DNA from: a virus | Lineage: Duplodnaviria > Heunggongvirae > Uroviricota > Caudoviricetes | Direction: 5' to 3' (one strand) | IMG/VR virus record: IMGVR_UViG_2648501165_000020 | DNA length: 22,254 bases | In this document: positions 3,001-21,000 of the stretch, in pieces | How positions within the stretch are numbered: the stretch's first letter is position 1 | Layout: each line of letters starts with the position of its first letter | Position numbers: made by a program

Positions 3001-6000
3001 TAAAGGATGCTGCAATTAAGACAACCGAAGTTGTGGGCGCTCTCAGGGAAGAGACAACAAGAACGATTAGTGGTATTGAAACCCGCATAACCACACTGGA
3101 TTCGTCAACCAGTGAATCGCTTAATGAGGTCGACAAGCGCATCACTAAACTGGATAAAGAAGGCGGTGAAGCGTTTCTGGCGATGTGGTCAAAAAAAGCG
3201 GGAGTTGATGGCATCACTGCGGGGATCGGGATTGTCGCCGGAAAAGACAGTGAAGGCAGGCCTGTAAGTCAGGTTGCAATTTCTGCGTCGCAGTTGTTTG
3301 TCTTTGACCCGAATAATCCGGATAACACAGCCTATCCGTTTGCGGTATCAGGTGGCAAGGTAGTGATCCCGAAAGCGATGATTTATGACGCGGTGATTGA
3401 AACACTGGTGTCGCGGAAGGTTGTGGCGGATGAGGTAAAAGCCGGGGTAAGTATCACTTCGCCAGTTATCCGGAGTGCCGTTATTCAGAACGGAAACTTT
3501 CAGGTTGATTCTCAGGGTAACCTGAATATTGGAGGCCTTTTCAGTGTTACGTCACAAGGGCAACTGACAATTCGTTACTCTAATCAGAATGTAGGACTGG
3601 TGATCCGCAATGATAAAATTGAGGTTTATGACCAGAATGGACGACTGGCTGTTCGCATAGGCAGATTACGCTGATCAGGAGGTGAGTATTGGAATACGGT
3701 TTTGCCATTTATAACAGAAATAACGTTAATGTTACGGGCGTGCTGACTCCAGTATTTTTCCTGGACAGATTTACAGCGGAGTCTGGCTCAAAGACGTACA
3801 CTAATAAACCCGACGGGAAATCATTGCAGGCTGTATGTTGTTTATTTCCCTGGAATAATGTATTTGCGGATCGGAAAGTACCGAAGATAACCATTAATGA
3901 CAATACGGTGACGTGGTCGAATCTTGAGCAGGGTATGGGATCTTATATTTATACATTCTGGGGATAAGTGTTATGTACGGTTTGAGCATTATGAAGCCGG
4001 ATGGCAGCGTATGGATAAGTCCAGGTTTTACGCCGCAGTGTCTGATCAACAAAGGCACCATACCGGCGACTGAAAAGTCTTTTTTTAAAACATCAATCCC
4101 GTCAGGCAAAAGTTGTTTTTTCTTTATCAGAACAGAGAAGAAGGCCGATGTCATGTACACGCATGAACAGATTGATGGATATCATGCACTAAGGCTTCAT
4201 GTAATTGTCAGGGGAACGAACCCTGGTGTTACGACGGTTTATGCTTTCGCGAATATGGTTACTCCACCTTCTGAGTATGGTATCGCCATGTATAACCCGG
4301 ACGGTGAGATGATTTATCATGGCGAAATGATGCTGCTTGACGCGAAGTTAATACCTGTTGATATCAAATTTGAAAAGGACCTTGGATATCCATGCGCAAT
4401 CATGCCTGCACTGGTCGGGTATTATAACTGGAAAAGAACTCCTTATGATCGACCGATTTATACCACATCCACTGGTGCTACAGGAAATAAAATATATTCC
4501 TGTGAGCATTATTCCGGTGGTGCAACATGGGATATTCGAAAGCCGTATATAGATAAGGTCCTGGTTATTAATACATCAGTATATGATTAGTTGAAGCGAG
4601 TCTTTAATATTCATTTAAAATGTCTAAAAAGATGTATTATTAAAAAGTTTAGCGTGTTATCTGAATACAGGATATCTTAAATGAAGAGTATAGCAACACT
4701 GGTTGTGTGTGCAATCTCCGGGATTGCCTGTGTAAATTTATCTGCACATGCAGCAGAAGGAGAGCATACAATTTCTCTGGGGTATGCGCACTTTCAGTTT
4801 CCGGGACTGAAGGATTTTGTAAAGGATGCGACTGCTCATAACAGGGAGACTTTCAGTCATTTCGTCAACAGAAACTACTTTTCTTCATTGGGCGAATATA
4901 CAGATGGTCGGGTCAGTGGATATGAAGGCAAGGATAAAAATCCACAGGGCATTAATATCAGGTATCGCTACGAGATAACGGATGATTTTGGCGTTATCAC
5001 CTCTTTTACATGGACGCGTTCTCTCACTAACTCACAGACATTTATTGATGTGCAGTCAGCCGATCATACCAGGAAGATTAAGAATCCGGCAGCTTCTGCC
5101 AGAACGGATATCAGGGCGAATTACTGGAGTCTGTTAGCGGGGCCTTCATGGCGGGTTAATCAGTACATGAGTTTATATGCGATGGCAGGGATGGGCGTTG
5201 CTAAAGTTAGCGCTGACCTGAAAATTAAGGACAATATTAACAGTAGTGGCGGATTTTCTGAAAGCAACAGCACGAAAAAAACCTCCCTTGCGTGGGCTGC
5301 AGGTGCACAGTTTAACCTGAATGAGAGTGTTACACTGGATGTGGCTTACGAAGGTTTCGGCTCTGGCGACTGGCGCACGAGTGGCGTTACTGCTGGCATT
5401 GGCCTGAAATTCTGACCTGTATCCGGTAACCGTTTACTACCCGCTGTGATGGCGGGTTTTTTATTGCCCGTACAGGGCAAAAACCGTAAATTATGCGTGG
5501 GTGCCTTTCGGCTGATGGCTGGAGGGTGAACCTGAAGGCCTGATGTGGAAAGGCCCCGAGTCAACTTAACGTTAACCCGAGGCCCTAACACTTCGTACCT
5601 TAAGCAAGTAGAAGGTTAGCGCCTCTCTGTAAAAGGAGTCAAGCGCTATGTCGCAAAAATCGCTTATCACCGTCACAATTTGCATGACGGTTATCTTCAC
5701 CATCTGGATGTTGCACGGTTCACTGTGTGAGTTCCGGCTGAATTTGTGGGGAGCGGAGTTTGCGGCGTTCTTACAGTGTAAGCAGTAGGAAAACCGCGAC
5801 GGGGACGAGAGTCCCCGTCAACTGGTTGCTGAGGTTCAGCCGATATGGCACCCGTTTCAGGTGAGAGAATGAACGATAAAATTCTCTGGTATATGCAGCG
5901 TGTTGTGAGAAATTCCCGCAACCCTGAATTTATGAATGAAGTTAAAGACGCCTGCCTTAAAAAGCAGGCGTTTTGTTTTGAGGCACCTGATGGCTTTTTG

Positions 6001-18000: not shown

Positions 18001-21000
18001 GCCTTTACATCCACTTCAACACTGCTCAGGTCTTTATCAATTTCACCCTCAATTCTTACTTTGTCTTTCGGAGAAACATTCTGACCGGCCCATATGCTGT
18101 CATCGATATCCGTGACAATTGTCCCGCTATTGTCACGAAACTCATAACGTTCATCACCCACTTTTTTAACGATGCTCCCTTCAAGGATAACCCATGCATC
18201 ATCCTTCAGTTCTTTTGCCTGCGCTACTGTTGAACGCTCTGCTTCAGGCCCTTGGAAACCGCCCTGCTGTGCAAAAGCGCCAAAAGACACACCAGAAATA
18301 AGTGCTGCAATCAATACCTTTTTCATTCATAGTCCTCTTTCAGAGATGAACATTCAAACAGCATTTTCAGTATGGTAAAGCGCGGGTGCGTTGAGGATGC
18401 CTGACACATCAGAGGTGGCGGGAGATTACTCCCCCGCTTGGTCTCTTACTTCTCAGATTCGTAGTCTACGAAGACAGCGACCTCCGTCTGACCGGTTCGG
18501 ATTCGCACCTCGCAGAGGTCTTTCCTCGTTACCAGTGCCGTCACAATGACGGTTAAACAGATGACGATCAGAGCGATTAATATCGCCTTTTGCTGCTTCA
18601 TAGCCTGCTTCTCCTTGCCTTTCGGCGCGTAAGAGGCTAACCTACATGTGTTCAGCATGGATTGAGCCTCAGATTAATGTTAAGCGTCTTGCCGGACGCG
18701 TAATGTTAACTGGGGCTTTTCTCTATCTGCCGTTGGTGTTCATGCCCGAGGCAGATAGCCTCAAGCACCCGCAGCAATTCTACTTAACTCTCCTTTTCCC
18801 GCAAACCGTTTTTATCTCCAGCGACAAATCGAATACACAACCAGCACCACCGCCATTACTGTTCCTACATTTGCGAATGCTTCAGGCCAGGTCATTGATT
18901 CACCTTCTGCTCAATATTTTTAAGGTCATTTTCCGCATACAGTATTGCAGTTCTTGCTGCCCGCAACCGTGCTTTGGTGTTCTTTTCTTCACGCTCGAGG
19001 CTGGCAACAGATTCTCGGAGCTGATCGTGTCTGTTATGAAGCTGTCTAATCTCTCTCACCACAGCCTCACCATCGTTCGCACACCGCAGAACATACTGAA
19101 AAGGGTCCACAACACATCCGCACTGCAAGCACAGGATAACGTGATCCTGTTCATGAACCTCAATGGCCCGATGCTTACAGCTCTGTTGTGTGTAGTTTTT
19201 TCTGCCAGTTACTGTAATGTTCAGCAGCTTCTCTTCATCGCGCTTTGGCTGCACCAGTGTGATGATATTATCGCCTTCATTTTCCATCAGTTCACCTCCT
19301 GCGGCGGTTCTGGTAGCGGCATCCAGTGTGACGGTTTCCACGACGCACCAGGAATTATCCACCCATCATTAGCGTCAGGATGCCCCGGGATGTAAGTCGC
19401 CCACTTCATTCGCCAGTCACCTTTCCTGTCAAACTCCACGGCAACAAGAACGGCTGTTTTGGTATCCGGNNNNNNNNNNNNNNNNNNNNNNNNNNNNNNN
19501 NNNNNNNNNNNNNNNNNNNNNNNNNNNNNNNNNNNNNNNNNNNNNNNNNNNNNNNNNNNNNNNNNNNNNNNNNNNNNNNNNNNNNNNNNNNNNNNNNNNN
19601 NNNNNNNNNNNNNNNNNNNNNTCCAGCACGGTAGCCGGGTTAGCCTCTGCTATGAATTCAGCGTTGCATAAGCCTGAGCATCTGTTTCAACCAGGCAGTT
19701 AACATGACATTCTGCAATCACGCCACCGGGTTCTCCTTTCCATTTTTGGCAAACAAAAACTCCTGTTAAATTGCCGTGCTGGTTAACAGATGTATGCCCT
19801 ACGATGTAGCTTCCTTTAGTTGCTTTCTCTGCCTTTTCACGCAGTGCCTGATAGTCAATCTTGCTCATTTTTCTCTTCACTCCGGTATACAAGGATTACT
19901 ACGCCCCCTCTGCTAATTGCGCGAGCTGGATCCCCTGGTTCCATGCCGTCAATACCGAAGGCTTCGAAAAATGCATCTATTGCCTTTTGGCGTTGCTCCT
20001 GCTTACGGCGTTTATTCCATTTTTTCATGAACAACAGTGACAGCCATCGTCCGCTGCAGAACATGATGTAGAAATAACCAAGGAGCGCTAGGCCGGTGTT
20101 CAGGGCTGTATCGATCGTTATCGTGGTGTTGATGTTCACTTCACACCTCTCTGTTTGTTGATAAGTTCAATATCCTGCTGGCAACTGGCGCAAGCTCTGC
20201 ATCCACGAACAGCCAGGCGTCGCCGCTCATCTATCGGATCGCCACACTCGCAACAATGAGTAGCAGATGGGGCATTACTATCGGATTTGTATTTTTGCAG
20301 GGAGAGATTGCGCTGCAATTCTTCGATTTCAGCGGCGTTGTCGATGATATCTGCCATTTTCCTTTCCTTCAGGCATGAAAAAAGGAGCCGAAGCTCCTTT
20401 GGTTTTAGAATTCGAATTGCCTTGCCCGCAGGCTTTTCAGCATTGGTCTGGCCCGCTGAACTACGAAACTCGACTGGTCAAGCCGTGCCGCCTCTCTCAG
20501 TAGCACATCTCTGTTCTTCGTCACCATGTAGATGGTCTCAAACGCAATGTCATACAGCTTGTTCGTGTATGAGGAGTTCAGCTCTTTCATGATCGGATAC
20601 AGGTGTTTGCTGAGGTCCTGGGCTTTTTCCATCCAGAGTTGCATGTAGCAGAGGAGGATGATTTCCTCGTCTGTGAATTGTTGCTGTGGTTCTGCTTGTG
20701 CCGACTGCATGTTGCGAAGTTTCTTTTCGCACTCGATGAAGTATCTGCGTATCTGTCGGCCTTTTTCGTTACGCTCTACCATCGCCGTTTCTTTGGCTGT
20801 ATCGAGGGTAAGGTGGTAGTCTTTTTTCCCTCGCCCATAACCTATTTCCCGTTTCTGGGAAATAGCTATATAGTCCTGATTTTCAACGAATCCGTACTCT
20901 TCAATACGTTCTGTAATCCACGATGCAAAGCGTTTACCTACTCCAAGAAAAGTATGTAAATCACGGGCATTAACGAGAAGAGTGGTTTCGTTGGCGATAG

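Follow-up and report, generated by a model that had tools for sequence, protein, structure and literature searches.

Two hok/sok-type cassettes of probably separate origin on either side of the late genes of a 933W/Sp5-type Stx2 prophage

Genes of the Hok/Gef toxin family lie at both ends of a late-gene operon in a 22,254-nt stretch of phage DNA, the IMG/VR virus record IMGVR_UViG_2648501165_000020, whose whole length is here referred to as the window. Judged by its sequence, the window is the late (right) arm of a 933W/Sp5-type Shiga toxin 2 (Stx2) prophage at wrbA: the Stx2 phage VT2-Sakai (Sp5) matches it at 99.6 to 99.7% identity over the right-hand 22 kb, as do its near kin Stx2 II, the PA-series phages, and Stx2a_F422. 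An earlier, sequence-only reading had placed one Hok gene on the plus strand (5648-5788) and a hok/mok gene on the minus strand (18446-18658), converging on an operon for a giant protein, and both coordinates and strands were borne out. It proposed that the two loci might be independent modules that stabilize this cargo, remnants of separate acquisitions, or the boundaries of an inserted sub-element. We conclude that they are very probably two hok/sok-type “moron” cassettes for type I toxin-antitoxin (TA) systems, unrelated to each other and acquired separately, and that neither delimits or specifically stabilizes the late genes that they enclose. The overall finding is ordinary and largely known: the right locus (hokW-sokW) has been published and functionally characterized, and the left gene, which we call hokL, is known by its annotation as Hok/Gef in RefSeq, PHROGs, and several GenBank records.

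In the deposited order (NC_000902 and AP000422), tail-fiber genes are followed by lom, the L0129-L0133 homologues, an 8.4-kb giant gene, and a small open reading frame (ORF). A ygiW-like gene (-) and mokW/hokW (-) with sokW (+) come next, then DUF551, ea22-like, DksA-like, and Ant genes (all -), up to attR inside wrbA. Free-phage records stop at window position 21571, and 21572-22254 is therefore host DNA. The GC skew changes sign near 18 kb, at the junction of the plus-strand and minus-strand gene arms, and the two cassettes converge because the late arm and the leftward arm meet just past the giant gene (17.4-18 kb). Coordinates of individual features are collected in Table 1.

The two loci

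The right locus has the full set of hok/sok features. HokW matches Pfam PF01848 at 78.7 bits (cutoff, 22), and the Rfam sok/hok leader family RF01794 is found full-length at 18596-18770 (-), where it scores 112.2 bits (gathering score, 59). Its sense promoter consists of TTGCGG, a 16-nt spacer, and TAGAAT, with a +1 position near 18770-18772; the sokW promoter (TTGCCT at 18615-18620, a 17-nt spacer, and TAACCT at 18638-18643) has its +1 position at 18650. In a purely computational minimum free energy (MFE) fold of the hokW mRNA, the 5′ GCGGGUGCUUGAGG pairs with the 3′ end, and this 5′-3′ closure comes with z = -6.9 versus shuffles. Experimentally, hokW-sokW is a type I TA system in which the antisense RNA neutralizes toxicity, the action of SokW depending in part on RNase III and Hfq (Takada et al. 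2021, PMC8621323). Mitomycin C reduces sokW and increases membrane-located HokW in a way that depends on RecA. The presence of hokW brings earlier growth arrest and doubled phage release after this treatment; deletion of hokW-sokW delays the arrest by ~40 min and halves Sp5 release, with growth unaffected (PMC8621323).

The left locus is a cassette of ~390 nt (~5465-5853, +) that lies between lom and the L0129 operon in late-gene orientation. The peptide of hokL, MSQKSLITVTICMTVIFTIWMLHGSLCEFRLNLWGAEFAAFLQCKQ, matches Pfam HOK_GEF (PF01848) at 33.2 bits (cutoff, 22; E = 4e-8) and PHROG 251 at E = 2.8e-24. Its residues C12, T14, L26, C27, E28, E37, and C44 align with positions of the Hok family logo. 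Both C27 and C44 are hard-coded, so Y-to-C editing would be unneeded. HokW ends in D-Y-E (TAC GAA, 18461-18466, -), and at the corresponding place hokL has its hard-coded Cys44 (5777-5779, +), like HokA; a recent Hok survey links the TAC-GAA (Tyr-Glu) motif of hokC, hokD, and hokE with Y-to-C editing by TadA. The two peptides are 37% identical across 35 aa.

The labels of the sequence-only reading, HokA/E-like for the left gene and HokD-like for the right one, are approximate. HokA (NCBIfam NF007290) is indeed the model nearest to the left peptide, but the score of 38.4 bits is below the equivalog cutoff of 89; HokA/HokE orthology was therefore rejected, and we treat hokL as a Hok-family member that is not a HokA equivalog. 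The right locus is ~90 to 93% identical in nucleotide sequence to chromosomal hokD loci. The gene hokL is unannotated in the original 933W, Sakai, and phi24B records, and a phrase search of the hokW paper (PMC8621323) gave no mention of a second hok locus. Elsewhere it appears in several GenBank records as “MokW-like host killing,” “host toxic membrane protein,” or “small toxic polypeptide” and in RefSeq/PGAP as “Hok/Gef family protein.” Phages with two hok genes make up 3.5% of hok-bearing phages, according to a preprint survey (bioRxiv 10.1101/2025.08.07.668861).

The predicted hokL mRNA, 358 nt long, folds with an MFE of -155.4 kcal/mol (z = -6.5 versus shuffles) and with its 5′ and 3′ ends paired. 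This tac-fbi closure, GGGUGCC at 5499-5505 with GGCACCC at 5847-5853, appears in the MFE fold and in a 22-sequence consensus fold. RNAalifold of these 22 distinct homologues preserves the closure, and compensatory changes are seen in 10 pairs; the tac-fbi pairs are invariant, and the covariation support thus stems from other helices. The leader of 149 nt begins with GGGUGCC and holds a conserved GC-rich hairpin at 5549-5590. A candidate sokL promoter (TTGACT at 5642-5637, an 18-nt spacer, and TAACCT at 5618-5613) lies over the hokL Shine-Dalgarno region; it shares its -10 element and geometry with the sokW promoter and matches 8 of 12 consensus positions. In the alignment, the plus-strand AGGTTA (the sokL -10) and the CAA of the sokL -35 are invariant. 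At the positions of the putative hokL sense promoter, P2-like copies read TTGCCG/TAGATT.

Selection appears to act on this locus. Among 21 intact, distinct Stx-type alleles there are nine alleles of the coding sequence (CDS), yet the peptide is identical in 20; the variable sites comprise 10 synonymous changes and 1 nonsynonymous change, a premature stop at the last codon. With 29 synonymous and 109 nonsynonymous sites available, a rough binomial estimate that treats these nonindependent sequences as independent gives a P value of ~1e-6, and the pattern indicates that the peptide is under strong purifying selection. The leader is more variable (33/149 sites), with tac, the hairpin, the antisense -10, and fbi invariant. 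The same ORF lies at 45784-45921 in phi24B, where it is CDS “a” of clone CM23, which came from an immunoscreen for lysogen-expressed products (PMC3342100). The recovery of CM23 hints at expression of hokL in lysogens but does not prove it.

In comparison locus L028 (3863-4000), a hokL-type CDS is only 54% identical as a peptide within a leader and 3′ untranslated region (UTR) near-identical to those of the window, which looks like a cassette-internal replacement or rapid diversification. In L026 (5266-6848; also in L019, L025, L047, and L010), a 1.6-kb insertion sits exactly between window positions 5857 and 5860, that is, between the hokL fbi and L0129, and carries a 398-aa YadA-head/YadA-anchor gene (an Eib-like trimeric autotransporter).

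Comparison with related prophages

If the hok loci were the edges of a discrete sub-element inserted into the prophage, as the sequence-only reading suggested, the 5.6-18.7 kb block should vary as a unit among relatives. The convergent, symmetrical layout of the two loci speaks for such an element, as does a GC content at 6-17.4 kb (0.49 to 0.58) somewhat above that of the lom region and the right arm. The comparison drew on 53 loci, namely, 52 IMG/VR loci found with the giant protein and strain E2863. From ~750 to 17467/17643, 42 to 53 of them are collinear, and 42 to 46 are collinear right across lom, hokL, and L0129. None of the ~45 relatives that cover the left hok (5.6 kb) has a synteny break there, and hokL itself is present in 44 of the 45 loci covering its position, making it a near-constant feature of this phage lineage. 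The order of tail genes, lom, hokL, operon, and giant gene is uninterrupted in 44 of 45 relatives. On the right, homology ends not at hokW but at 17467-17470 (34 to 37 nt past the giant-gene stop) or 17637-17643 (~205 to 210 nt), and variation starts at one of these two points; no presence/absence polymorphism of the whole block was seen, the block with its left flank staying collinear in essentially every relative. Direct or inverted repeats and target-site duplications at the two edges amounted to chance-level matches of ≤28 nt, none convincingly pairing the edges. The GC content of the block equals that of the upstream tail genes, and the compositional profile of the window has no island-like step at 5.6 kb.

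The gene content of the block argues in the same direction. Pfam and PHROG searches found no integrase or transposase domain among the products encoded at 5869-17433. In phi24B, gp47, which is homologous to the giant protein, is abundant in the virion and is proposed to be ejected with the DNA (proteomics and cryo-electron microscopy preprint, bioRxiv 10.64898/2026.04.10.717836), and the enclosed genes are for this reason phage late genes and not cargo. Expression of the giant protein tracks induction (PMC3342100), and the product of 6340-6993 weakly matches a PHROG annotated as a virion structural protein. We therefore consider a discrete sub-element very improbable. The claim that the loci are independent modules stabilizing cargo holds in its first part, as independent type I TA modules, and fails in its second, the genes enclosed being late genes.

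The right locus is far less constant than the left. Within the 52 IMG/VR loci, hokW-type genes occur in 9 of the 37 with at least 1.3 kb of downstream sequence (one of the 9 is truncated). Where both sides are covered (30 loci), hokL alone is present in 24, both loci in 5, and neither in 1, so that most relatives carry the operon without the right hok. In phi24B and strain E2863, the giant gene is directly followed by the end of the sequence or by host DNA. Counted feature by feature, a phage collection contains the giant gene in 186 records, the hokL cassette in 198 (~21 at P2-type identity), and the full ygiW-hokW cassette in 45; among complete Escherichia coli genomes, the giant gene is found in 426 and the full right cassette in 107.

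This inconstancy reflects the position of hokW-mokW-sokW in a hypervariable cargo slot, at the end of the leftward arm distal from attR. Between the giant gene and the DUF551/ea22 genes, the slot (L020, 18536-21944; L022, 18632-21164; L046, 18507-21365) alternatively holds a SocA/Panacea gene, a ParB-like and PAPS-reductase/DUF3440 pair, or a ClpX-zinc-finger protein. Further cargo comprises DUF551 variants, a weakly Peptidase_C58-like protein, insertion sequence elements, and a group II intron reverse transcriptase. A remnant of the Panacea gene, of which L020 has an intact 174-aa copy (19319-19843), contains the recurrent breakpoints at 17637-17643. O104:H4-type phages have a frameshifted, internally deleted hokW-type pseudogene directly after the giant gene (6123-6320 in L063, an E. 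coli O104:H4 Stx2a prophage, and the ends of L006-L008, L010, L025, and L037); the leader is gone together with sokW and the entire ea/Ant arm, so that attR-proximal sequence comes next. L044 (~18455-18501) has lost the equivalent of window 17468-18498, and with it the ygiW-like gene and one third of hokW at the 3′ end; the mokW start and sokW are kept, which leaves a toxin-dead locus that retains its antitoxin.

Occurrence of each cassette elsewhere

Both hok types occur in contexts unrelated to the operon; this, like the operon without the right hok, is an observation that the sequence-only reading had itself named as speaking against its proposal. Each cassette is discrete and has homology elsewhere from its promoter region to its 3′ fbi (5479-5853 and 18374-18813), and the separate-acquisition part of the sequence-only reading stands. 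P2-like prophages carry the hokL segment 5479-5853 at their end, directly downstream of ogr, with 81 to 83% nucleotide identity, and homology with the P2-like loci L003 and L004 stops at 5853. The exact hokL leader 20-mer is found in 80 IMG/VR loci, 61 of them P2-type and 13 Stx-type; wherever the sequence of a Stx-type copy extends far enough downstream, L0129 follows. The hokW segment 18374-18813 matches hokD-type loci (~90 to 93% nucleotide identity) in 4,755 of 5,426 E. coli genomes and in 603 plasmid places, and the ygiW-hokW-DUF551 trio is also found in the nin region of another lambdoid prophage.

A scan of genome contigs with the same hokL leader 20-mer gave only 5 loci. Three of these (L058, L060, and L061) are in contigs labeled Xanthomonas pisi, a Sphingobacteriaceae metagenome-assembled genome, and a Vagococcus sp. 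and are probably contaminating enterobacterial or phage DNA, so the scan did not help to gauge diversity.

Mechanism and function

The mechanism that we propose has steps demonstrated for hokW, which we extend to hokL. A stable mRNA, tightly folded so that a 3′ fold-back element pairs with its 5′ end, would leave the toxin untranslated, and a short, unstable cis-antisense RNA, whose promoter lies over the toxin ribosome-binding region, would pair with the leader and direct the mRNA to decay. A fall in antisense supply, whether through prophage induction, prophage loss, or transcription arrest, would allow the small membrane peptide to be made, and this would depolarize or permeabilize the inner membrane. 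hokL would follow the same logic without a long mok frame and with both cysteines hard-coded. RNAduplex energies for cross pairs of the two systems are -51 and -56 kcal/mol, versus -131 and -142 for the cognate pairs and ~-40 ± 4 for shuffles; the antisense RNAs thus have no extended cross-complementarity, so the modules are probably independent, and cross talk between the hokL and hokW systems is unlikely by this model.

Of the functions that might be assigned to the cassettes, assistance in lysis is the one with data, for hokW alone. Plasmid R1 hok/sok acts by post-segregational killing (PSK). Given this precedent, both loci might mainly be post-segregational killers of the whole prophage, and two modules that do not cross-react would guard both of its arms. 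The low cross-pairing of the antisense RNAs and the “prophage maintenance” label of hokW in AP000422 are in line with such a role, and the preprint survey gives an approximately fourfold enrichment of hok genes in prophages (bioRxiv 10.1101/2025.08.07.668861). However, chromosomal hokA, hokB, and hokC gave no PSK (Pedersen and Gerdes 1999, as summarized in a citing paper), the sole hokW experiment found a role in lysis and phage release and no growth effect of the deletion (PMC8621323), and hokW is often lost or decayed in otherwise intact relatives. We consider PSK as the main function possible but doubtful.

Exclusion of other phages is a further candidate. The R1 hok/sok system reportedly excludes T4. 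As abortive-infection or exclusion devices of the lysogen, the cassettes would respond to the transcription shutoff by an infecting phage, which would deplete Sok and free Hok, and the other TA- or defense-like cargo of the right slot in relatives (SocA/Panacea; ParB-like plus PAPS-reductase) makes for suitable company. Yet a large survey describes hok genes as not enriched near defense systems, and HokW is induced via the phage's own induction pathway (PMC8621323). We judge this role unlikely.

Several points weigh against reading the two loci as separately acquired and functional TA cassettes. For hokL, the transcript ends, the antisense RNA, and toxicity are predictions from a locus known by its sequence. 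The consensus promoter scan called neither a sense nor an antisense hokL promoter, which is why we describe these promoters and the transcript ends as putative. RF01794 matches the hokL leader full-length (5499-5661; 35.6 bits, E = 2e-6 in a 600-nt search), below the gathering score of 59; at that threshold Rfam reports the right locus only, and the left one appears only in a permissive search. The ORF list contains no long mok for hokL, either in frame or overlapping, and the frame of hokL meets a TAA 18 nt upstream of its ATG. The terminator scan found no plus-strand terminator after the hokL fbi in the Stx-phage context, and three hokL alleles are frameshifted. On the comparative side, most loci were seeded on the giant gene, and relatives lacking the block could be found only via the hokL- and hokW-seeded searches. 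The O104:H4 remnants imply that hokW-type loci have adjoined the giant gene for longer, and more widely, than the tally of intact copies would indicate, and possession of both hok loci may be the ancestral condition of the clade that integrates at wrbA. By analogy with the lambda b region, transcription of the minus-strand arm may start at pL and pass attP in the circular genome.

The missing mok frame, the subthreshold Rfam score, the weak consensus promoters, and the damaged alleles (the three frameshifted ones and the one with a premature stop at the last codon) would also suit a nonfunctional relic, a passive passenger between lom and L0129 comparable to several of the chromosomal hok loci of E. 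coli K-12. A relic, however, would not be expected to accumulate 10 synonymous polymorphisms and yet keep the same peptide in 20 of its 21 intact distinct alleles, to retain all residues conserved in the family logo, or to hold tac/fbi, the hairpins, and the antisense -10 invariant in a leader that otherwise varies at 33 of 149 positions, and the same cassette is kept in a second, P2-like phage family. These features make a relic improbable in our view, and separately acquired TA cassettes remain the interpretation that we prefer.

A more specific idea, which we offer tentatively and hold to be less probable than not by a wide distance, is that hokL is a second functional, mok-less Hok of short-tailed Stx phages that is released late on the phage's own schedule and is redundant with hokW, neither being primarily an addiction module. 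Q-antiterminated late transcription through the lom terminator would cross hokL in the sense direction; the read-through hok transcripts would lack a proper tac 5′ end, the antisense promoter would be occluded, and Hok would be released late. Redundancy with hokW would explain why deletion of hokW alone just halves phage release.

These results have consequences for how Stx phages are read. Their “giant-protein operon” consists of late genes, including one for a virion protein, and is not addiction-guarded cargo; downstream of the giant gene lies a cargo slot that is prone to recombination. Phages 933W, Sp5, and phi24B carry a second, strongly conserved Hok cassette that was overlooked in the original annotations and in the hokW study. 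Furthermore, hokL could confound single-knockout phenotypes in lysis timing and phage release and, hence, in Shiga toxin release.

Neighboring features

Two further observations concern the window at large. Its principal structural departure from the reference phage, VT2-Sakai, is at 19469-19622 (the orf75/DUF551 region), where it is ~320 nt shorter, and an above-gathering Rfam match to sRNA-Xcc1 (RF02221; 69 bits) lies at 21075-21163 (-), between the Ant gene and attR. For the L0129 homologue, the ATG at 5869 (MNDKIL...) is a likelier start than the annotated one, because in L026 the homologue begins with a GTG at the position corresponding to 5869.

Table 1. Features of the two hok cassettes and their neighbors in the window
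Feature	Position	Strand	Basis and remarks
lom (Ail/Lom outer-membrane protein)	4681..5415	+	NC_000902 and AP000422 annotation, ORF list; upstream neighbor of the hokL cassette
lom intrinsic terminator	5439..5464	+	Terminator scan; stem 5439-5457 plus T-run, abuts the hokL -35
Putative hokL promoter, TTGCCC-17 nt-TAAATT	5465..5493	+	Read by hand and from the alignment; directly after the lom terminator
Predicted full-length hokL mRNA	5499..5856	+	5′ GGGUGCC (tac-like) pairs with 3′ GGCACCC (fbi-like)
Predicted Sok-like antisense RNA (sokL)	5543..5606	-	Predicted from promoter hexamers; terminator would be the 5549-5590 hairpin
Short upstream ORF, GTG start, 24 codons	5545..5619	+	Ends 29 nt before the hokL ATG; sole candidate mok equivalent
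hokL CDS, 46-aa Hok/Gef-family toxin	5648..5788	+	Pfam, PHROG; RefSeq WP_000078907, “Hok/Gef family protein”
hokL 3′-UTR stem-loop	5797..5820	+	Compensatory changes in P2-type copies (alignment columns 313/322 and 314/321)
fbi-like GGCACCC	5847..5853	+	3′ edge of the cassette common to P2-like prophages; overlaps the annotated L0129 ATG (5845)
L0129-L0133 homologues, five late genes	5869..8982	+	Annotated start, 5845; function not assigned
2806-aa polyvalent protein	9013..17433	+	Pfam LPD5, LPD1, MuF_C, LPD38; homologue of phi24B gp47
Stem-loop after the giant gene	17442..17464	+	Recurrent breakpoint 17467-17470 just beyond
SocA/Panacea-domain (PF13274) gene remnant, internally deleted	17556..17707	+	N-terminal 31 codons fused to a C-terminal fragment
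YgiW/YdeI (BOF) family gene	17982..18326	-	Pfam BOF, 113.7 bits; travels with hokW as a cassette
hokW full-length mRNA	18375..18772	-	5′ GCGGGUGC pairs with 3′ GCACCCGC at 18382-18389
hokW CDS, 51 aa	18446..18601	-	AP000422, Pfam; toxic by experiment (PMC8621323)
mokW, 70-aa frame	18446..18658	-	ORF list, AP000422; 19-codon in-frame N-terminal extension of hokW
sokW antisense RNA	18650..18720	+	AP000422 misc_RNA (offset, 1503), sequence; function shown in PMC8621323

Comparison with known systems

The right locus is the published hokW-mokW-sokW of Sp5/VT2-Sakai and 933W (L0137/L0144/L0138), at the same position; HokW of the window is 98% identical as a peptide to the Sakai allele, a single amino acid difference that is not material. 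Part of hokW is also ~92% identical in nucleotide sequence to E. coli K-12 hokD (relF), where the match covers only window 18374-18615 (735-976 of the 17640-19000 query), so K-12 hokD is without the leader. The giant protein lies outside the hok systems and matters here in that it marks the bracketed genes as late genes; it has the same LPD5-LPD1-MuF_C-LPD38 content as the phage large polyvalent proteins (Iyer et al. 2017, PMC5512222) and phi24B gp47.

For hokL, the closest counterparts are the Hok cassettes that follow ogr in P2-like prophages and phages (such as phage P88 and E. coli A0 34/86; PHROG 251, “MokW-like host killing”). They are the same cassette, with 81 to 83% nucleotide identity, 74 to 76% peptide identity, and the same predicted fold, but reside in a different host element with different neighbors, at the P2-like prophage end and followed by a terminator and attR. 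The peptide differences are mostly nonsynonymous substitutions in the transmembrane segment. Among the chromosomal loci of E. coli K-12, hokA provides the curated model nearest to HokL, and both have two hard-coded cysteines.

With plasmid R1 hok/sok and the Hok/Gef family (PF01848, RF01794), both loci share the small hydrophobic toxin with its conserved Cys/Thr/Leu-Cys-Glu/Glu pattern, the long folded leader, the tac-fbi closure, the 3′ stem-loop, and an antisense promoter over the toxin ribosome-binding region (predicted in the case of hokL). Unlike R1, hokL has only a 24-codon upstream ORF in place of an overlapping mok, and its RF01794 score is below gathering. Both loci reside in a prophage and not on a plasmid.

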